A DNA stretch of 19,710 bases from an uncultured Methanosarcinales archaeon (GCA_964344235.1 CAYFMJ010000015.1:1-19710), one strand, 5' to 3'. Counted from the first letter of the stretch, positions 212 through 15,313 are shown. The notes: generated from the sequence alone by a model not told the origin. A program made the numbers and translations.

Positions 212-1063
212 ATGGATGTGATGTTTCTCGTTGAAAAGTATGGAAAAATTCGTAACCTTAGTCCGAGAACGATAGACACCTATAAAGTAACATTATCAAA
301 GTTCTTTCGTAGACATTGGCGAAAAGATCCACGGGAGATAACAAAGCAGGATGTGGAGAACTACCTGTATGAATTGGTGCAACGTAATAAGTCTCCAAAG
401 ACGATCAATGTCTATTTGAGTGCTCTTAAGTTCTTTTTTGATATTGGATTGAAGAAGAAACTGCTTGTTAATGTTCCTTCATTAAAAACAGAGAAAGAGT
501 TACCTGTATTCTTAACGAAAGAGGAAGCACAGCGGCTCTTTGATGTGATTATGAATGATAAGCACAAATTGATGATTCTACTACTGTATTCTGCGGGTTT
601 GCGGGTGAGTGAGCTTGTTCACCTGAGAGTTCGTGATTTAGAGTTTGCGCAACAATATGGTTGGGTGAGGCAAGGTAAAGGAAGAAGGGATAGATTATTT
701 ATCGTTGCCGAGAAGATAAATAAAGAGTTACAGGAATGGGTTAAAACACAAAGATTACAGAGCGACGACTGGTTATTTCCTTCCTCTCGAGGTGGTCACT
801 TAACTGTTAGGACAGTACAATCCCTCCTTAGAACGGCAACAAAGAAAGCCAAGATTAACAAGAAAGTGACACCACACACATTACGCCATACGTTTGCAAC
901 TCATCTAATCGAGAATGGGTACGCTGTAACGGATGTGCAGCCATTATTAGGACATAATCGCTTGGATACAACCATGACGTATGTTCACATGGCGACTAAT
1001 AGAATGATTCGGGTAAAAAGTCCATTAGATGAGTTAGATAAAAATGCCGTCAAAAGATCATAA
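212..1063 (+). CDS. XerA/XerC/D-like tyrosine recombinase with N-terminal SAM-like domain
   Basis: Complete catalytic set: GLRVSE (R), GKG (K), HTLRH (HxxR), LGH, TMTY (Y). Lacks the integron-integrase-specific insertion between GKG and HxxR. TATA-like CTTATAAA at 181-188, 23 nt upstream of the ATG. Confidence 0.93.
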   Translation: MDVMFLVEKYGKIRNLSPRTIDTYKVTLSKFFRRHWRKDPREITKQDVENYLYELVQRNKSPKTINVYLSALKFFFDIGLKKKLLVNVPSLKTEKELPVFLTKEEAQRLFDVIMNDKHKLMILLLYSAGLRVSELVHLRVRDLEFAQQYGWVRQGKGRRDRLFIVAEKINKELQEWVKTQRLQSDDWLFPSSRGGHLTVRTVQSLLRTATKKAKINKKVTPHTLRHTFATHLIENGYAVTDVQPLLGHNRLDTTMTYVHMATNRMIRVKSPLDELDKNAVKRS

Positions 1064-5997: not shown

Positions 5998-6133
5998 AGA
6001 TCGTGTCTTTCCGATTAGAATATCGCTTAAAGAAGAAGAGATATTAAGAAAAGAAGCAAAGAAAACAAAAAAAAGTATAGCCACCCTCATTCGTAATGGC
6101 CGTTTGAAAGAGATCAATGAATTTTTTGTTTAA
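5963..6133 (+). CDS. Ribbon-helix-helix (CopG/MetJ-like) DNA-binding protein, 56 aa (not in the ORF track)
   Basis: MKRYIIPKENIKDRVFPIRISLKEEEILRKEAKKTKKSIATLIRNGRLKEINEFFV: beta-strand RVFPIRIS, helix, then the SIATLIR helix typical of RHH proteins. Confidence 0.65.
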   Translation: MKRYIIPKENIKDRVFPIRISLKEEEILRKEAKKTKKSIATLIRNGRLKEINEFFV

Positions 6134-7358
6134 TTAAGCTTTCAAACATTTTTTCTATCTTATCAAATCGTTGAACGATGTTATTGTTCATCATCCTTTC
6201 ATGCATATCAACGGCCTCTTGGATTTTTTCACGATCTAATGGCCTCTTACAGTTAACGCAGAAATCAGCAGTAAAACCATTGCCATAAGAACAAAAACCA
6301 CACGTTTTAACTGATTGGTCACGTTCTTTAGTTGCATCCATTAAACCTCTTCTCTGTAACTCTATCTTAAATGCATCCTCTTGACCACTCATGTCATACA
6401 CCTGTAACTGTTTTGTAGAAGTCCATCGAGCAGCTTGCTGGATTTGTAAATCGCTATCGCCTCGTTGCCTTCTGAATGTGACACCATTACGTTTAAGGCT
6501 ATAGCAGGTAATGCGCTTCTTAATTCCAAGACTACGGCAAGCATAGCGAAGCTTCTTGTTAATGTTAAAGTTAGTTAGCTGAGCAAATTTATTGAAGTTG
6601 CTTGTAGTGATAAAGAAAAAAGAGTCTTTCTGATCCTTAAAGGGATGGTTCTTGTACCACTCAACGACAAAGGGGTAGCTATCGATACATTGCAACATCC
6701 CCGTGCCTTCTTTCCCATGCTCTGAAATCCAAATTTTTGCATAGTTGTCATAGAATTCATAGTCACGGATTCTCGTGTAAAGAATCTCCTGCGGTCTTCC
6801 GAGAGATTCTACCGCTAAAGTGAGATATGCTTGCATTTGTGGATTGCCAGAAAAAAAGCCAACGATTTTATGAAATTCTTCTAACGTTAGGCGGTCATTA
6901 CGGCGTTTCTCTTTACTCTTATCAACGGTTCTTTTAAGATGCCTTACTACATAAGGAACAATAGTTTCATCGAAGCGGCCTCTTTCATCTTTTTCAGGGA
7001 GGATCGTTTTCCAAACATTTTTCAAATCTTTAATGAAATCACGCTTACTTTCAACTGTTTTGTTCCTCTTCTGGGAGAAAGCCACTAATCTATTAATATC
7101 ATTACGGGTACACTCTTTAAGATTCTTGTCAAGAACATAGGTAATCACTTTCATCACATGAAGAACTCTTATCCTACGAATATAACTTAAATCTTTCATT
7201 TCAAAGACATCTATTAGTTTTTTGAAATAAGTTAGGTTTACCGGATTCTTGCAATAATAGATTGCTTTCCTATTTGTTGGTTTATCACAAAGAAGATCTA
7301 GGTTTTTAATCATACTCTCATAACGAGCTTTGCTCTTGTAGATGTCGTCATCTGCCAT
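6114..7358 (-). CDS. Archaeal-type tyrosine integrase with C-terminal zinc ribbon
   Basis: ESLGRPQEI (catalytic R), HGKEG (K), YSLKRNG (variant of HxxR), RWTSTKQLQVY (W and Y) and C-terminal CGFC...CVNC. SD-like AGGTGA upstream; starts 144 nt downstream of the tRNA-Glu 3' end. Confidence 0.85.
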   Translation of the reverse strand: MADDDIYKSKARYESMIKNLDLLCDKPTNRKAIYYCKNPVNLTYFKKLIDVFEMKDLSYIRRIRVLHVMKVITYVLDKNLKECTRNDINRLVAFSQKRNKTVESKRDFIKDLKNVWKTILPEKDERGRFDETIVPYVVRHLKRTVDKSKEKRRNDRLTLEEFHKIVGFFSGNPQMQAYLTLAVESLGRPQEILYTRIRDYEFYDNYAKIWISEHGKEGTGMLQCIDSYPFVVEWYKNHPFKDQKDSFFFITTSNFNKFAQLTNFNINKKLRYACRSLGIKKRITCYSLKRNGVTFRRQRGDSDLQIQQAARWTSTKQLQVYDMSGQEDAFKIELQRRGLMDATKERDQSVKTCGFCSYGNGFTADFCVNCKRPLDREKIQEAVDMHERMMNNNIVQRFDKIEKMFESLIKQKIH

Positions 7359-7706: not shown

Positions 7707-8048
7707 ATGGAGGGACGGGAGATTTTGGGGTTAGTGGAAGAGATTTCTTTGCTAAACTCAGAAGTAGAAGAACAGGTTACAGCACGTATTGATAGCGGAG
7801 CGATGACATCTTCATTAGATAAAACAATTGTAGAGAAACTAAATTTAGGTCCGATCTTAAGAACGAAAGTTATCAAATCTGCATCGGGAGTTGAGGAACG
7901 ACCAATCATTGCAGCACGTGTAAGGATTAAAGGGAAAATTATGGAAGAAGAGTTTACAGTGGCAGATAGAAACCATATGACGTATCAGGTGTTGATTGGA
8001 CAGAATATTTTGAAAAAAGGAGAATTTTTGATAGACCCATTACGATGA
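7707..8048 (+). CDS. RimK-associated putative protease (retropepsin-like 'ATP-dependent Zn protease' family)
   Basis: ARIDSGAMTSSL, EERPII, FTVADRNHMTYQVLIGQN; overlaps rimK, the usual partner of this family. Confidence 0.85.
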   Translation: MEGREILGLVEEISLLNSEVEEQVTARIDSGAMTSSLDKTIVEKLNLGPILRTKVIKSASGVEERPIIAARVRIKGKIMEEEFTVADRNHMTYQVLIGQNILKKGEFLIDPLR

Positions 8049-9127
8049 AAGCAGCATTGATATCATTAGGAAGTACCAGTTCCATTATGACAGCGGAAGC
8101 GATGAAAAAATATTTCAATGAAGTGGAGATGCTACAGTTAAAAAATATCGAAGTATCATTGGGGAAAGATGGAGGCGTGTATTATGAAGGGAAACCAATT
8201 GACCATTTTGATTGTGTGTATGTGAAAGGATCTTTCCGTTATGCAAATTTGTTACGGTCTGTATCAGCGATGTTAGAAAATAAAGTGCCGTACATGCCAT
8301 TCCCGGCAGCAACGTTCAGTAAGGTGCATAATAAGTTGTTAACACATTTAATTTTACAACAACATGATATTCCGATGCCGAAGACGTTTATTTCTTCAAC
8401 GGTAGAAGCAGCCAAAGATATGTTGAACAAATTGAATTATCCAATTGTGATGAAATTTCCTGAAGGGACTCAGGGTAAAGGAGTGATGTTTGCGGATTCA
8501 CAGAGTTCCGCGGCATCAATGTTAGATGCGTTGGAAGCATTAAACCAACCGTTTATTATTCAAGAATTTATTGATACGGAAGGAACCGATGTACGGGCGT
8601 TAGTGGTAGGAGATAAGGTTGTGGCGTCAATGAAACGGCGAGCGAAAGTTGGGGATTTACGATCAAACACACATAGTGGTGGTTCTGCAGAAGCTGTGCA
8701 GATTGATTGGAAAACACAGGAATTAGCGGTGAAAACGGCGAAAGCGTTACAGGCAGATATTTGTGGAGTGGATTTACTAATTGGGCCGTTAGGTCCGGTT
8801 GTTATTGAAGCAAACATTTCTCCAGGGTTACAGGGCATTAGTTCTGTGTCAACGGTCGATGTAGCTGATGAAATTGCGAAGTTTTTGTATAAGAAAACGG
8901 AAGAAGTTGTGGTGAAGAATAAAAAAGCAGCAGCAGCCGAAGTGATGAAAGATATTGCGTTAGAACAACCACAAGATACGCAAAGTGTGATTACCTCATT
9001 AACTGTCCGCGGACAAAGAATTTTATTACCTGAATTTGTAACAAAGATTTCTGGTTTCTCTGAGAAAGGAGAGTATACCATTAAAGCTGCGAAAGGGAAG
9101 GTTGAGATTGAGAAGTTTGAGATGTGA
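8045..9127 (+). CDS. RimK/LysX-family ATP-grasp alpha-L-glutamate ligase with C-terminal AbrB-like extension
   Basis: NKLLT...IPMPKT, PIVMKFPEGTQGKGV, IIQEFI, DVRALVVG, RSNTHSGG, GVDLL, VIEANISPG. Confidence 0.9.
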   Translation: MKAALISLGSTSSIMTAEAMKKYFNEVEMLQLKNIEVSLGKDGGVYYEGKPIDHFDCVYVKGSFRYANLLRSVSAMLENKVPYMPFPAATFSKVHNKLLTHLILQQHDIPMPKTFISSTVEAAKDMLNKLNYPIVMKFPEGTQGKGVMFADSQSSAASMLDALEALNQPFIIQEFIDTEGTDVRALVVGDKVVASMKRRAKVGDLRSNTHSGGSAEAVQIDWKTQELAVKTAKALQADICGVDLLIGPLGPVVIEANISPGLQGISSVSTVDVADEIAKFLYKKTEEVVVKNKKAAAAEVMKDIALEQPQDTQSVITSLTVRGQRILLPEFVTKISGFSEKGEYTIKAAKGKVEIEKFEM

Positions 9128-9497: not shown

Positions 9498-9743
9498 TCA
9501 CTTCTTTCTCTTTGGTTTTTTCTTAACAGGTTCAACAGTTTTAGGTTTAAACCAAATCAGGTAGATGATAGGAAGCAAACCCGCAGTGTTCAGAATTAAC
9601 ATCACAATAAACCATGCTTTCTGTTGGTTCTTACCAGCAAACCATAAAGCGATGCCTTTCCATACTAATGTCCAAACAGCAAGGAGAAGAATTCCAGCAG
9701 CTGTCCAAGCAGGTTGTTGGTATAATGTGTATAGGAATGTCAT
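9498..9743 (-). CDS. DUF5652-type small membrane protein
   Basis: WTLVWKGIALWFAGKNQQKAWFIVMLILNTAGLLPIIYLI signature; Lys-rich C-terminus. Confidence 0.8.
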   Translation of the reverse strand: MTFLYTLYQQPAWTAAGILLLAVWTLVWKGIALWFAGKNQQKAWFIVMLILNTAGLLPIIYLIWFKPKTVEPVKKKPKRKK

Positions 9744-9895: not shown

Positions 9896-9949
9896 TTCTC
9901 GTGGAGAACTTTTATAAACGTTGTAAAAATACTATTGTAGAGGTTAACG

Positions 9950-11926
9950 ATGGGTTTGAAAGAGCTATTTAGCACGAAAAAAAGTGGTGAAAAGAGGAAG
10001 TTAGGATTCTATGTTTTGCTGTTTATTACAATCAACTCTATTTTAGGTAGTTCATTATTCTATTTACCGAATTTAGGAGTGATCAGTTCCGGTGCTGCAT
10101 CGATTATTGCGTGGATTGCTATTTTTATTATTGCAGTTGTGATTATGGCGTATATTGGAGAGTTAGTTGTTCTTCATCCATCATCTGGAGGGACGTATGA
10201 GTTCTGTAAACGAGCGTATGGAAGATTTGGTTCTTTCATTGCCGGTTGGTTGATTTGGATTGCAGGGAATTTTGGGATGGCCCTCAACATCGTAGCGGCA
10301 GCACAGTATTTTATTCCAGAGCAGTTAGGGTTGCAGTTGGTGTTTGCAGCAATTTGGATTATTGTGTTGAATTATATGGCGTATAGAAGTATCGATGCGG
10401 GTGCAACGATGTTAGTTGTGTTCGGAGTAATTGCAACGTTTGTGGTGCTGTTAATGACTCTTCCAGCGTTTATTGATATCCGTGCGTTATTTGGTGGAAG
10501 CTTACAGAGTGTGTTCTCATTTGATTTATTGCAACCGTTCTTTAGGCATGAAGGTCTGGGGATTCTTTCATATATGGGTTTATCATTATTGTTAATTAGT
10601 GAAGCGTTTTTAGGGTTTGAAGTTGTAACGTATATGTCGAATGAAGTAAGAAATAAAAGAGAGTTGCCACGAGTATTAGTGTGGGGAACTGTCATTAGTG
10701 GAGTTATTATGAGTATCTATGTGTTTAGTTCTTTGGGAGTTGTGCAGTATCATGATTATGTTAACAATTTACGGCCATTCGCTGTACATGCGTTTAACAC
10801 AATGGGGGCTATTGGGCAAAGTGTTGTGGTGTTTGGGATGTACCTCGTTATCATAGGAGCGGCAGCGGCGTGGCCGATTGCAGGCTCTCGTCTGTTACGG
10901 GCAATGGCAGGAGATAAATTGTTTCTGAAACATTTTGCAGAGTCACACCCAAAACATGGTTCGCCATATAGGGCTGTTATTTTCCAAGCAGTTGCAGTTG
11001 CGTTGTTTGCATGGTTTATCTTTAGAGGATCGATTGTAGGATGGCAAGATTCATATCGATCGATTTATTTGATCTACGTGTTGATTAGTTTAGTAGTGTT
11101 ATCGTTGATTTTATTGAGTGTGCCAATTTTACGGAAGAAAGAAAGTCATTTAAAGCGGGAATACAAAGCGCCACTTGGGTTTGTTGGACCGATTGCGTTA
11201 GTGGTATTATTTATTGTATTAATTGTGAATTGGTTCCTGATTGAAGGTGGTGTCGCAACGGCACTGTTGTTGTTAGCTGGTTCATTTATTATTTTCGGAT
11301 TGCCAGTGTATTTCTTTGTTGAAATGTTGTATAACTCTAAAGCGATTGTGGGAGTGAATAATTGGTTAGCGTATGTTTCTGTCTTCGGAGAAACGATATT
11401 TTTTCCATTTACAATCCGGGGCCGGTTTGTTAGGGAGATGGGAAATTTAACGGGGCATCGAATTTTAGAATACGGCTGTTCCGTTGGTTCTTTGACAAAA
11501 AAGTTGGCGCATAAAGTTGGCTCTCATGGGCGGGTGTATGCCACAGATATTTCTGAACATCGCGTAAAGGTAGCGGGGCAAAGGACAAAGAAGCACCGAC
11601 ACGTAAGTGTGCACCATCACCCCCATTTACATGATTTTAGATTATCCCTCCCTGAGAAAGTTGATCATGTTGTTTCAATCGGGATGTTATCATATATGCA
11701 GAAACCGAAACGAGTATTGAGTAAGATTGCGGAGAACATGGAGAAAGGTGGAGAAGTTATCTTTATTGATTATGATAAATTCTTTTGGTTGATTCCGAAT
11801 GTGAAGTGGGTTGAGAATGATGTGCAGTTGCATAAGATCTTCCATGACGCTGGGTTTGATGTGCAAGTACATCGGAAGAATAGTTTGTTTTGGCAGTATA
11901 TTATTGTGAAAGGGAAGAAGAGATAA
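9950..11926 (+). CDS. APC-superfamily amino acid permease fused to a C-terminal class I SAM-dependent methyltransferase domain
   Basis: TM1 ITINSILGSSLF, SGGTYEFCKRAYGRF, AFLGFE, SRLLRAMAGDKLF, HPKHGSPY, REYKAP. The C-terminus (aa ~500-658) has ILEYGCSVGSLT, VYATDISE and KGGEVIFIDY. TATA box at 9911-9918 and SD-like GAGGT. Confidence 0.9.
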   Translation: MGLKELFSTKKSGEKRKLGFYVLLFITINSILGSSLFYLPNLGVISSGAASIIAWIAIFIIAVVIMAYIGELVVLHPSSGGTYEFCKRAYGRFGSFIAGWLIWIAGNFGMALNIVAAAQYFIPEQLGLQLVFAAIWIIVLNYMAYRSIDAGATMLVVFGVIATFVVLLMTLPAFIDIRALFGGSLQSVFSFDLLQPFFRHEGLGILSYMGLSLLLISEAFLGFEVVTYMSNEVRNKRELPRVLVWGTVISGVIMSIYVFSSLGVVQYHDYVNNLRPFAVHAFNTMGAIGQSVVVFGMYLVIIGAAAAWPIAGSRLLRAMAGDKLFLKHFAESHPKHGSPYRAVIFQAVAVALFAWFIFRGSIVGWQDSYRSIYLIYVLISLVVLSLILLSVPILRKKESHLKREYKAPLGFVGPIALVVLFIVLIVNWFLIEGGVATALLLLAGSFIIFGLPVYFFVEMLYNSKAIVGVNNWLAYVSVFGETIFFPFTIRGRFVREMGNLTGHRILEYGCSVGSLTKKLAHKVGSHGRVYATDISEHRVKVAGQRTKKHRHVSVHHHPHLHDFRLSLPEKVDHVVSIGMLSYMQKPKRVLSKIAENMEKGGEVIFIDYDKFFWLIPNVKWVENDVQLHKIFHDAGFDVQVHRKNSLFWQYIIVKGKKR

Positions 11927-14254
11927 TCACTTCTTCTTACCGTAAATAAAGAGGTCATGTCTGAACGGAAGTTTTTTCTTGACGTAGGTTGCTTTCAGTT
12001 TATGTGATGCAAACATCTTTAACAATTTCTTTCGGTCATTTAACAGAAGAGAATTCGCTGCAACGTTAAATGTGTTCTCTGTGATATAGAAGCAGAATCT
12101 ACCTCCTTTCGGAAGCTGTTTCTGCACTGTTGTAAGAAATTTGTCAATATCATGTATAAAGCCGAGGTCGTTATACGACAAGAATATGGTTGGTTTACCT
12201 GTCTTGGAAGGGAAGGAGCCATGTTTAGAGACAGAAGATACAACGTTCTTATGTTTCACATCTTTCCGTACTGCGGCAACTTCTTCCTTAGAAGTGTTAA
12301 TGTGGTGGATTTTTTTGAACTTAAATTTCTTTGCTAGCACACTTGTTAAAGCACCAACAGGGGAGTTGTAATCAACGATAACATCATCTTTCTTAATTGG
12401 AGAGACATAGGACAACATGCGATTATATTCAATCCGTGGTTGCGGGATTTTGTGGAAGAATACTCTAATGCGAGCTAAAATGTTCTTACGCACTGTAACG
12501 TATTTTGCATCATAGAATAGTTCAATTGCAAAGTAGGCTGGAATACCAAATGCTATCAGTGAAGCGGAGACACGCAGGATGTCGAGAGCACCGTGGGTTT
12601 CGCGAATAAACATGACTAACAGAAACACCATGAAACCAACGATGAAGAATGGGCCAAATTTGCCGAGTGGCGCTCTGAACGCTCTCTTCATATCTGGTTT
12701 CTTGAAACGGAGAATGGCGACGCTTACTAATACAGCTGAGTAGACAACTAAAATTAATGGGATAAGCATGTGAAGTAATGTTTCATATGATCCCGCACCG
12801 ATCCACACGAGAATAGAAACGACAACGGCTTGAAACGCTATTGAGACGTATGGGCTTTTATGTTTTGGGTGGATTTTTGCGAAGTGAACAAAAAATAATT
12901 TATCTTCTGCAATGCTCATTAATAGACGCGGAGCGGTAACAATCCAACCAGCAGTTGCTCCAATAACAGAGACGAAGATCAGTAAGGTGAAGATAATACC
13001 CCCTGCAGAGCCGAAGTAGGTTGATCCTAAATCTCGTAATGGTGCAACAGATTCGGCAAATGTATCCCACGGAATATTACCCATTGCAGTAAATGCTAGC
13101 AAGAATGCCAGAAGAGCAATCACAACCGTTCCCCAGACGAGTGCTTTCGGCATGATTTTCCGAGGGTCTTTGGTTTCAGCAGCAAGGAAGATCGCTGATT
13201 CCCACCCAAAGAACGTTTCTGCGATGAAGAAGATAGCTAGGACGACGCTCATTGTTGGGAACACAAAGAATGGATCAAAGTTTGCAGGGTTTAACGAAAC
13301 GAAACCAGGAATAATAATACCAAGCACTGCAACGAGCGTAATTAATGCAAAGGTAACAAGTACGTAGGTTGAGGTCTGCATGCCACGAAAGGCAACGATG
13401 CTGAATAGGAGAATGAGAGCAATAGCAATGGGGATATAGGTAAAAGCGTATTGAGAGGGGATAAGGTATTGCAGTGCTCCTAATAAAAGCATAGCAATAG
13501 TTACACTACCGGAAATTGCAGTAGTCCAACCAATCACAAATGACCAGAATCTCCCGTAGGTTTGCTTTGCGAATTCATACACGCCACCCGCTTTCGGAAA
13601 CATGGAAACAAGCTCACCGAAACACATGGCAATGTAAATAGCAACAATTGAAAGAAGTCCCCATGAAAGAAGAGAGGCTGGACCCGCATGCTTTGCTCCT
13701 GCTGAGGTTAAGAACCAAATACCTGTTCCCATGATGGAATTAATGGTAATGAGGAGAATAACTTTGAAGCTCAACACGCCTTTGAGTTTTTTTTCGTGCG
13801 GTTGGACTTTGCGGATTTTTCCTTTCTTTACCTGCTTACGAATCCGTAAGAACCGGGGAGCTCTCGCGCCAAACCGTAGAAGTCTTAGGAGTCGGCCATA
13901 GCGAGCAAATCGCGCGAAGCGGGCCACTCTGCTAATGATTCTTACTCCACGAAGCGCTCGAATTAATGTGAGCCCTTCAATCCCAAGGAATATAAGGTTA
14001 AATGGAATTGTTGCGATAATGTCTAAAGAATGTTTCTTTACATAGGGTAGAAAATAGGGATTATCCTGCCACCTAAAATAAAGGTCTGTTGCAAAGATAA
14101 GGATAACATAAAAATCGAAGATGTCAATAAACAACTGTAATGAAGGGACGTTGTAAAATAATTCAATTATTGTGACAATTAAGAGAAGTACTAATGATGG
14201 AGGAATGAGAAACTGAATGAGCTTGTCAAGTCTATTTCGTGGTTTTACAGCCAT
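11927..14254 (-). CDS. Voltage-sensor domain (S1-S4) + APC-superfamily permease + degenerate methyltransferase-fold domain
   Basis: aa 1-140: S2 IFATDLYFRW, S3 LDIIATIPF and an S4 with RxxR repeats, with no pore or TVGYG motif. aa ~155-590: APC core (INSIMGTG, KAGGVYEF, FFGWE, PRLLMSIAEDKLF, RAFRAP). C-terminus: VIVDYNSPVG...PKGGRFCF. Confidence 0.88.
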   Translation of the reverse strand: MAVKPRNRLDKLIQFLIPPSLVLLLIVTIIELFYNVPSLQLFIDIFDFYVILIFATDLYFRWQDNPYFLPYVKKHSLDIIATIPFNLIFLGIEGLTLIRALRGVRIISRVARFARFARYGRLLRLLRFGARAPRFLRIRKQVKKGKIRKVQPHEKKLKGVLSFKVILLITINSIMGTGIWFLTSAGAKHAGPASLLSWGLLSIVAIYIAMCFGELVSMFPKAGGVYEFAKQTYGRFWSFVIGWTTAISGSVTIAMLLLGALQYLIPSQYAFTYIPIAIALILLFSIVAFRGMQTSTYVLVTFALITLVAVLGIIIPGFVSLNPANFDPFFVFPTMSVVLAIFFIAETFFGWESAIFLAAETKDPRKIMPKALVWGTVVIALLAFLLAFTAMGNIPWDTFAESVAPLRDLGSTYFGSAGGIIFTLLIFVSVIGATAGWIVTAPRLLMSIAEDKLFFVHFAKIHPKHKSPYVSIAFQAVVVSILVWIGAGSYETLLHMLIPLILVVYSAVLVSVAILRFKKPDMKRAFRAPLGKFGPFFIVGFMVFLLVMFIRETHGALDILRVSASLIAFGIPAYFAIELFYDAKYVTVRKNILARIRVFFHKIPQPRIEYNRMLSYVSPIKKDDVIVDYNSPVGALTSVLAKKFKFKKIHHINTSKEEVAAVRKDVKHKNVVSSVSKHGSFPSKTGKPTIFLSYNDLGFIHDIDKFLTTVQKQLPKGGRFCFYITENTFNVAANSLLLNDRKKLLKMFASHKLKATYVKKKLPFRHDLFIYGKKK

Positions 14255-14311: not shown

Positions 14312-15313
14312 CTACTTCTTACGTTTCGGTTTCGCTTTCTTCACGGGTTTCTTAGATTTTCTTGCAGCTGTTTTCTTTGCTGCTCTTTTTGTAGGTTTCT
14401 TTTTAGGGGATGACTTTCTTTTTGCAGTTGGTTTTTTCTTCGGTTTAGTTCGAGATACTTTCTTCTCTAACTTTTTGATTTTCTCTAAATCTTCAATAAT
14501 GTCAGATGCAATAAACGAATATCCTTTCCTCTGTTTCAATAACACATCGCCAACAGCACCGTTGATGAACGCTGCCGCTGCAGCACTTTTGAATAAGTCC
14601 TGTGTTTTTCCTAAGAAACCAACGGCCAAACCTGCAAGAACATCCCCTGTGCCTGCTTTAGTCATGCCCTGATTACCAGTTCGGTTGAATGCAATCTTAT
14701 TACGGGAAATAATAATATCGGTTGGCCCCTTTAGTAGAAGAACGTTGTTGTTCTGAAGGAAGTATCGTAAGTTCCCTTGTAAAATTTCTGCTTTCTCTTT
14801 TGCGTTTGAACTTCGTAATTTAGGCAATAGGAATTCTTTGTGGCTGTTAACAAGCATCATCTCTAATTCTGTTTCATGCGGTGTAATAATGCAGTTGTGA
14901 AAATCTTTAAAGGACATTGATTTTAATGAATCTGCATCGACAACTTTTAACCTCGATGATTTTTTGATAAAGTAGGAGCTAAATTTGTCAGCTTTCCTGG
15001 TGATGCCATTACCAATCAGAACTGCGTCGAATCGGTCAGAATACTTTACCATCTCTTTGGCAAGTTTCACGGTAAATGCATTTTTGATTTTATCTGTGAT
15101 CAAATCAGGAGCATATTTGTTAATGGTCCAGGCAACTTTTTCTGGGGCGGCAATGGTTACAACATCACAGCCAGAACGAAGTGCAGCAAGTCCCGCTAAT
15201 GTAACTGCTCCCACAAATTGTTCAGAACCACCAATCACGAGAACTTTACCATTCTCTCCTTTGCGAGAGGTCTTCTTACGCTCCATCAACTTCTTTACTT
15301 GATTTAAGTTCAT
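14312..15313 (-). CDS. nnrD: ADP/ATP-dependent NAD(P)H-hydrate dehydratase (YjeF C-terminal/CARKD) with a Lys-rich H1-like tail
   Basis: RKGENGKVLVIGGS...GAVTLAGLAALRSG, VVDADSL, IITPHETE, LLKGPTDII, GMTKAGTGDVLAG. The last 50 aa contain 28 K/R and no acidic residue. Confidence 0.92.
   Translation of the reverse strand: MNLNQVKKLMERKKTSRKGENGKVLVIGGSEQFVGAVTLAGLAALRSGCDVVTIAAPEKVAWTINKYAPDLITDKIKNAFTVKLAKEMVKYSDRFDAVLIGNGITRKADKFSSYFIKKSSRLKVVDADSLKSMSFKDFHNCIITPHETELEMMLVNSHKEFLLPKLRSSNAKEKAEILQGNLRYFLQNNNVLLLKGPTDIIISRNKIAFNRTGNQGMTKAGTGDVLAGLAVGFLGKTQDLFKSAAAAAFINGAVGDVLLKQRKGYSFIASDIIEDLEKIKKLEKKVSRTKPKKKPTAKRKSSPKKKPTKRAAKKTAARKSKKPVKKAKPKRKK

Follow-up and report, generated by a model that had tools for sequence, protein, structure and literature searches.

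Carriers of the amino acid-polyamine-organocation (APC) fold are among the best-studied transporters, yet our literature searches found no paper on their fusion to a methyltransferase (MTase) fold, nor on archaeal fusions of a voltage sensor with an APC carrier. Both kinds of fusion are encoded on a 19,710-nucleotide (nt) stretch of DNA (GCA_964344235.1, CAYFMJ010000015.1:1-19710; this whole stretch is hereafter called the window), which is deposited under an uncultured Methanosarcinales archaeon and whose host is taken here as a tiny DPANN archaeon (window genome, G000: 1.19 Mb, 96% complete). Two convergent open reading frames (ORFs), identified by ORF detection and translation, are concerned: P0001 (658 amino acids (aa); 9950-11926, plus strand) and P0002 (775 aa; 11927-14254, minus strand). 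The best reading, which we hold with moderate confidence, is that they are two separately transcribed, individually functional and specialized paralogous APC carriers of the amino-acid type. An original prediction, made from the sequence of the window, had proposed a heterodimer. The present analysis contributes a test of distribution, the recognition of features described as degenerate as conserved states, a proposed ancestral array of three gene lineages (G, V and P, defined below) and the finding that the convergent abutment of the two genes is a one-off. Directly observed were the domain identities and motif states of the proteins, their conservation and distribution, and the synteny of the genes.

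Among solved APC carriers, BasC (6f2g), AdiC (3l1l), GkApcT (5oqt) and LAT2 share with both proteins an AA_permease_2 core of approximately 12 transmembrane helices (TM). P0002 has the usual G-T-G of these carriers in TM1, whereas P0001 differs from them by GSS in TM1 and by F in place of W in TM6. To our knowledge, all four lack both the MTase-fold domain at the C-terminus and the voltage sensor at the N-terminus. The SLC12 cotransporters and KimA are APC-fold carriers in which a large cytoplasmic C-terminal domain regulates transport and mediates dimerization; they resemble P0001 and P0002 in the succession of an APC core and a soluble domain, but their C-terminal domains are not MTase folds. 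Pairs of an active MTase and a pseudo-MTase are known from METTL3-METTL14 and Trm61-Trm6, which are obligate and co-distributed heterodimers. In these pairs, one partner has the S-adenosylmethionine (SAM) motifs and its paralogue lacks them, as is the case for P0001 versus P0002; unlike these pairs, the lineages of P0002 (V) and P0001 (P) each also occur without the other.

Two further systems are relevant to the additional domains. The sperm Na+/H+ exchanger SLC9C1 is described as the sole transporter known to be regulated by voltage-sensing domains (PMC10620092; see also PMC10620091, PMC6052114). Like P0002, it combines a carrier, a poreless S4-type sensor and a cytoplasmic ligand-type domain in one polypeptide; it differs by its Na+/H+ exchanger fold and its cyclic-nucleotide-binding domain, whereas P0002 is an archaeal protein with an APC fold, a putative sensor at the N-terminus and an MTase fold. 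SAMTOR, in turn, has a class I MTase fold and serves as a sensor of SAM (PMC10883374). An MTase fold that reads SAM is the role which may be assigned by analogy to the intact C-terminal domains described here, although SAMTOR is a soluble eukaryotic signalling protein and not part of a carrier.

Domain architecture of the two carriers

P0001 and P0002 are paralogues. They share 31% identity over 649 aa (BLASTP, E 2e-93), in an alignment that spans TM1 to the C-terminal domains and covers the common motifs ITINSI.G, GG.YEF.K..YGRF and HPKH.SPY as well as the terminal GKK.

The carrier core of P0001 (aa 18-438) matches AA_permease_2 (PF13520) with 137 bits (E 9e-40, cut-off 27), and its nearest solved carriers are BasC (6f2g, E 6e-16), AdiC, GkApcT and LAT2. 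Its TM1 motif (FITINSILGSSLFYLP, aa 25-40; 10022-10069, plus strand) reads GSS where the family consensus is GTG; the glycine-rich, unwound TM1 of BasC and AdiC follows G-[ST/A]-G, with GAG in BasC in the alignment to P0001. The C-terminal domain (aa 468-658; 11351-11923, plus strand) is predicted by AlphaFold2 (AF2) and Foldseek to adopt a class I MTase fold, as is that of P0002 (below), i.e. a Rossmann-like α/β fold of seven strands. Matches to Methyltransf_31/25/12/11 cover aa 502-619 with E-values from 1e-11 to 7e-14, all above cut-offs (PF13847, 52.2 bits against a cut-off of 27; PF13649, PF08242 and PF08241 likewise). The features of a class I MTase are present, with G509 and G513 in the LEYGCSVG of motif I (ILEYGCSVGSLT; 11462-11497, plus strand) and D533 in the ATD of motif II (VYATDISE; 11534-11557, plus strand). 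The AF2 model of the domain reaches a predicted local distance difference test score (pLDDT) of 88.5 and a predicted template modelling score (pTM) of 0.87. Its top structural match is the Aquifex SAM-dependent MTase 3dh0 (E 9e-14, TM-score 0.73), and further matches include ChlM, NodS, phosphoethanolamine N-methyltransferases and UbiG.

A histidine-rich stretch of P0001 (KKHRHVSVHHHPHLHDF, aa 547-563; window approx. 11588-11638, plus strand) follows motif II, at a place where the family consensus reads H.HV...HD.....RVHP. From its sequence, it may be a metal site or a portion of the adenine pocket.

In P0002, the carrier core (aa 161-547) matches AA_permease_2 with 147 bits (E 8e-43, same cut-off), and TM1 (ITINSIMGTGIWFLT, aa 169-183; 13706-13750, minus strand) has the canonical GTG. 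This core is preceded by an S1-S4 voltage-sensor-like module without a pore domain after it (approx. aa 1-140; 13835-14254, minus strand). The first 140 aa are without any Pfam match and P0002 shows no Pfam Ion_trans match; the module was detected through a profile of 13 orthologous N-termini, which matches the KvAP voltage sensor 1ORS (E 1e-5). All 43 matches of this profile are voltage-gated channels, including KvAP 1ORQ, HCN1, Kv1.2/2.1 and Kv4. Arginines are regularly spaced in S4 (RALRGVRIISRVARFARFARYGRLLRLLRF), and several of them are invariant in the 13 V-type orthologues, as are D57 in S2 and D78 in S3.

The C-terminal domain of P0002 (aa 588-775; 11930-12493, minus strand) is predicted to keep the MTase fold with its SAM motifs replaced. 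Motif I reads VDYNSPVG (12353-12376, minus strand) and N653 stands in place of the acid in the motif II region (KKIHHINTSKEEV; 12278-12316, minus strand), so that neither the glycine-rich motif I nor the strand-2 acid of class I MTases is present. The best MTase match (Methyltransf_11, PF08241; 16.9-20.7 bits) stays below the cut-off of 21.2. The AF2 model (pLDDT 89.8), whose underlying alignment is dominated by intact relatives, has the same strand order as that of P0001, and Foldseek aligns it to SAM MTases with TM-scores of 0.69-0.71 (0.71 to 3vc1). Judged from sequence and model, a single P0002 chain thus combines a voltage-sensor-like module with an APC carrier and an MTase-fold domain. 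Its orthologues number 35 in the 114-genome family sample introduced below (57-80% identity).

A separate frame resembling the sensor was seen in G260 (C135:5583-7349). This frame of 117 aa, which shares 71% identity with P0002 over the first 100 residues of the latter, adjoins a plain 427-aa APC carrier. Either a fragment or a split form may be present here, the contamination of that genome being 6%.

Motif states across the fusion family

The fusion was followed in 114 genomes of the family (58 genera) and in 151 genomes of the order (genomes are numbered with G and loci with L). It is present in 92-96 of the 151 genomes (approx. 60%), mostly as a single generic copy of approximately 630 aa, and P0001 and P0002 each have at least 100 orthologue clusters in metagenomes, the named ones being labelled Woesearchaeota or Nanoarchaeota. 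No APC-type carrier apart from this fusion was detected in the window genome, P0001 and P0002 being the sole carriers of their kind found there. As judged from their small genomes, the hosts probably depend on imported amino acids.

Three lineages were distinguished: generic fusions (G), fusions bearing the voltage-sensor domain, including P0002 (V), and fusions with a remodelled substrate site, including P0001 (P). In a tree that comprises 92 fusion proteins and an outgroup of plain APC carriers (quick search, LG+G4), the V clade (11 proteins; Shimodaira-Hasegawa-like approximate likelihood ratio test 100) is nested within the generic fusions, and the P clade (five proteins, support 98), which includes P-like genes from three other families, sits on another branch. 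This tree includes G112 and G132 (rows L008, L019 and L026), which are flagged as unpublished, G132 being one of the 11 V-holders; both genomes were excluded from alignments A2 and A3, and the conclusions do not depend on either.

The generic consensus reads INSIMGTGIFFLP in TM1, IAETFFGWE in TM6, LEFGCSVGTLT in motif I and YATDIS in motif II. P-types depart from it in the carrier, with FILINSILGSSLFYLP in TM1 and SEAF[FL]GFE..SYMANE in TM6, where F replaces W. Across 74 P-type orthologues, these variants are almost invariant (G33 in 74, S34 in 68, S35 in 73 and Y228 in 74), which indicates a selected, specialized site rather than decay. A TM1/TM6 site that is both remodelled and so strongly conserved most likely means that P0001 carries a different substrate. 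The residues E507, G509, G513 and D533 of the MTase motifs are kept in 69-74 of the same 74 orthologues.

V-types, in turn, have a canonical TM6 and a canonical TM1, the latter identical or near-identical to that of P0002 in all those examined and close to the generic consensus. Their C-terminal domain occurs in two conserved states, as well as in intermediate forms of the SAM motifs. The intact state (DY[DN]CGxGGFT and YA[IV]DK) was found in 38 clusters and the SAM-blind state (typically NSPMGxFTQ and IANQSKEE), to which P0002 belongs with NSPVG and INTSKEE, in 86. No truncation of the domain occurs in the SAM-blind clusters, where conservation reaches 85% or more in 28 columns of the domain; the same level is reached by the replacement residues N630, G634, T637, N653, K656 and E658. 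Mean pairwise identity is 48% in the C-terminal domain versus 82% in the carrier core for SAM-blind V-types, and 55% versus 78% for intact-motif V-types. Judged from these values, the SAM-blind domain is somewhat relaxed yet clearly maintained. Its state is derived, being nested among intact V-types, and arose at least twice (in the family clade and in G109). In every aligned non-V fusion, the first glycine of motif I is retained; the strand-2 acid is variable even among generic fusions.

Most of the sequence features on which the original prediction was built are borne out by these comparisons. The BLASTP alignment, Pfam matches and predicted folds agree with its description of two APC cores with MTase-like domains and common motifs; LEYGCSVG and ATDISE are kept in P0001 and conserved in its orthologues; the canonical TM1 and the voltage sensor of P0002 are recovered by the TM1 motif and the match to KvAP. 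Both C-terminal domains are predicted as class I MTase folds (TM-scores 0.71-0.73). The complementary pattern is likewise real when set against the family consensus: in P0001 the carrier site has diverged and the SAM motifs are intact, in P0002 the carrier site is canonical and the SAM motifs are lost. What is too simple is the reading of these states as decay: the altered TM1 of P0001 does exist, yet it is conserved across orthologues, and the replaced motifs I and II of P0002 are more than mere degeneration, since they are maintained across 86 clusters.

We propose that P0001 and P0002 would descend from an old tandem array holding lineages G, V and P. P0002 would have kept the canonical substrate site and gained the S1-S4 module, its MTase-fold domain having lost the SAM motifs and been retained in its full length to serve structure or coupling. 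P0001 would have kept a SAM-binding-type domain together with its remodelled, conserved TM1/TM6 site. From the observations above we infer the difference in substrate, the sensing of SAM, the control by voltage and the independence of the two proteins.

Co-occurrence of the two lineages

The heterodimer of the original prediction can be extended to a hetero-oligomer in which the P-type would be an accessory subunit pairing with a canonical paralogue (here P0002), with its SAM-binding domain docked on the SAM-blind one, and in which voltage and SAM or S-adenosylhomocysteine (SAH) would jointly gate transport. Several observations speak for such pairing and weigh against two independent carriers. 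V and P are each found in 35 genomes of the family, and 29 of the 41 genomes holding either hold both (six with V only, six with P only). A scan with P0001 yielded 13 further P-holding genomes (54-63% identity), all of which also hold a SAM-blind V-type, and in all genomes found with both types, V is SAM-blind. The two genes are adjacent in eight of the 29 genomes holding both. Tight tandem arrays are present in seven relatives. A same-strand G-V-P array has gaps of 43-74 nt in L110, with similar arrangements in L102, L104 and L111 and a V-P arrangement in L100 and L106. P-like genes of two other families (G065, G019) lie 1-2 nt from a generic paralogue. P-like genes without any other fusion paralogue are found in only five of 38 genomes, all of them 77-94% complete; incompleteness alone could explain these cases, and P may thus be present only beside a canonical copy. 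The complementary motifs are as would be expected of a pair of active and pseudo-enzyme. Lastly, basal members of the clade keep GSG in TM1 and stand alone; therefore, the loss of the second glycine coincides with the presence of a partner.

However, the distribution departs from that of an obligate heteromer, whose partners would always be found together. P-types without a V-type occur in G181 (97% complete), G175 (93%), G198 (94%), G195 (94%), G239 (87%) and G238 (77%), and V-types without a P-type in G261 (96%), G260 (91%), G193 (92%), G275, G272 and G194; in the order sample, nine of the 11 V-holders are without a P-type. The genus g166 alone shows V+G, P+G, V+P, V+P+G and P alone. If all 41 holders are assumed truly to have both genes, and the chance of missing either to equal the incompleteness of the genome, 6.7 single holders would be expected where 12 are observed (P 0.023), and 2.4 where seven are observed among genomes at least 90% complete (P 0.008); this test is rough, kin not being independent and marker-based completeness being a rough guide to missing genes, which lessens its weight against pairing. 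Furthermore, SAM-blind V-types are found in G260, G272, G193 and G109, where no other fusion gene was found, which indicates that the blind domain does not need an intact partner domain.

Gene arrangement also tells against pairing. Neither co-transcription nor a fixed adjacency is seen: V and P lie on different contigs in other genomes, and even on a shared contig they can be 390 kb (G171) or 570 kb (G273) apart. In the window, each gene has its own putative promoter-like element, read from the sequence, with a TATA-like TTTTATAAA (9910-9918) and GAGGT (9940-9944) 5' of P0001 on the plus strand, and a TATA-like TTTAATAA (14298-14291) and GAGGT (14264-14260) 5' of P0002 on the minus strand. 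The latter element is held in the 57-nt spacer between the P0002 start and the neighbouring NAD(P)HX dehydratase gene. Separate elements and convergence argue that the two genes are not co-transcribed. They would instead form separate converging transcription units, the 3' ends of which must overlap or end within one another, a layout opposite to what co-expressed subunits would be expected to favour.

Two further considerations bear on the P-type itself. Its carrier site is under strong purifying selection, as for a working carrier, and a young or specialized duplicate naturally accompanies its parent copy. The presence of P beside a canonical copy fits an accessory subunit and fits equally a specialized duplicate kept beside the main carrier.

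Overall, the complementary motifs on which the heterodimer was based stand and co-occurrence is frequent, whereas obligate pairing, co-transcription and fixed adjacency do not; as for synteny, same-strand arrays do exist in relatives, but distant genes are found elsewhere and convergence only in the window. The paralogues are thus independent in part of their relatives. A heteromer is possible but rather unlikely, and the convergent pair is better seen as diverged copies from an old array, which usually travel together and sometimes alone. The narrower proposal that the P-type is a dedicated SAM-reading subunit on a SAM-blind V-type (or on a generic paralogue), with its active-type MTase domain docked on the pseudo-MTase, appears less probable still. 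If true, transport by this secondary carrier would be under the joint control of membrane voltage and of the methylation state of the cell, a combination of inputs that has not been described for any carrier.

Role of the cytoplasmic domain

In the case of two independent carriers, the intact C-terminal domain would mainly be a regulatory input, which reads SAM/SAH and tunes transport. Trans-inhibition domains offer parallels for such a role. In the carriers bearing a voltage sensor, voltage could substitute for the SAM/SAH input, which would explain why the SAM motifs were eroded repeatedly and in V-types only. Three observations favour a regulatory over a catalytic role: the blind domain is retained and conserved in many lineages, eroded SAM motifs were seen only in fusions with a voltage sensor, and the strand-2 acid varies even among generic fusions.

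A coupling of uptake to catalysis is, however, a serious rival to this regulatory role. The C-terminal domain of P0001 and of generic fusions would in this case methylate an imported small molecule at the cytoplasmic exit, P0002 would have given up the chemistry, and the two genes would again be independent. The strong conservation of SAM motifs in P- and G-types is consistent with this proposal, as are the nearest folds, which are small-molecule MTases (3dh0, ChlM, NodS, phosphoethanolamine N-MTases and UbiG), and the ability of the genome to make SAM through a bacterial-type MetK (C23:784-1203). Nevertheless, the SAM-blind domain is full length and conserved in at least 86 clusters, which points to a role free of catalysis, and the variable motif II acid, also among generic fusions, speaks against it as well. 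The domain is moreover minimal (approx. 160 aa), with no evident substrate-binding insert in the model of P0001, and no pathway partner genes were seen near P0001 and P0002, either in the window or in related loci. We therefore regard uptake-coupled methylation as improbable, without dismissing it. An import of SAM itself was dropped as a leading idea, because the genome has the bacterial-type MetK; the archaeal MetK (PF01941) and AdoHcyase (PF05221) were not detected in it.

The family offers a natural experiment in this respect, one scaffold being available in three versions: SAM motifs without a voltage sensor, both elements together, and a voltage sensor beside erased SAM motifs. The comparison of these three forms could show the job of the cytoplasmic domain, and whether a voltage sensor can gate an APC carrier.

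Junction of the two genes

The stop codons of P0001 (TAA, 11924-11926) and P0002 (TGA, reading TCA on the plus strand, 11927-11929) abut with 0 nt between them, as the original prediction had it, and the junction reads ...AGA TAA / TCA CTT... in the window. An 11-nt inverted repeat (GAAGAAGAGAT / ATCACTTCTTC; 11914-11936), with arms that are 91% complementary and separated by 1 nt, is centred on it. This repeat is accounted for by the Lys/Arg codons of the common C-terminal GKK(R/K) motif, read on both strands; the terminal G..K is almost invariant across the fusion family.

Zero intergenic bases are unusual, a short inverted repeat sits at the join, and the convergent abutting layout is unique among relatives. 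These observations would fit an assembly artefact, the ends of two contigs having been wrongly linked when the metagenome-assembled genome (MAG) was built. However, the region 11835-11990, including the junction, is covered without mismatch by a 156-nt contig from a public run, built independently, although this run may be the source sample of the window genome; this contig speaks against an error of the MAG assembler. The RimB-like and RimK genes on the P0001 side and the NAD(P)HX dehydratase gene (NnrD) on the P0002 side come from one neighbourhood conserved in relatives, and both reading frames are intact and end cleanly at the junction. An artefact thus seems very improbable.

Convergent abutment was found in G000 only (one of 10 same-contig cases), and the stop-to-stop layout would be a local rearrangement peculiar to the window genome rather than a design feature. 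The pair in the window adds little beyond what the family tells, its striking layout being a local accident.

Neighbourhood and minor observations

The gene order of the family is a RimB-like protease, RimK, a DUF5652 gene (minus), the G-V-P array (plus), a Kv-like channel (minus) and the NAD(P)HX dehydratase NnrD (minus). Compared with relatives, the window lacks the G gene, and its V gene is inverted and occupies the position of the Kv-like channel gene. In the window, a RimK ATP-grasp gene (360 aa; 8045-9127, plus strand) begins within a RimB-like retropepsin/Zn_protease gene (113 aa; 7707-8048, plus strand), and 9-11 related loci have this pair (7707-9127) in synteny with the carrier array. 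A DUF5652 membrane protein (81 aa; 9498-9743, minus strand) is divergent from P0001 and has a homologue at the same position in nine related loci. The NAD(P)HX dehydratase gene (14312-15313, minus strand) lies on the other side of the carriers.

A 316-aa Kv-like channel stands directly after the array in L110 (8405-9355, minus strand), with homologues in L103, L104, L107, L108 and L112. The L110 protein matches Ion_trans (E 6e-23) and Ion_trans_2; no Ion_trans match was found anywhere in the window genome. A derivation of the P0002 sensor from this adjacent channel was considered and found no support, BLASTP showing an S4-like stretch only (E 0.098).

Small free-standing ORFs of 132-222 aa are present on the opposite strand between V and P in relatives (L102:7212-7880, L104:7274-7831, L108:7395-7925 and L111:7245-7811, all minus strand; also L090, G022:C4:77753-78112). 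They are 26-30% identical to the voltage-sensor region of P0002, with weak Ion_trans matches (E 1e-4 to 2e-5, below cut-off), and no counterpart was seen in the window.

In some generic fusions, the MTase domain is followed by an extension of 86-226 aa: three in G030 and one each in G007 and G055 (L020:5410-5997, minus; L020:7913-8512, minus; L021:5416-5997, minus; L022:7906-8583, plus; L017:5740-5997, minus). Pfam returned nothing for these extensions except DUF3108 (E 3e-8) in G007.

Finally, the window contains two tyrosine recombinases (212-1063, plus strand; 6114-7358, minus strand); one is a clear XerC/D-like integrase (E 8e-43), and the other, of 414 aa, weakly matches Phage_integrase (E 1.5e-5).

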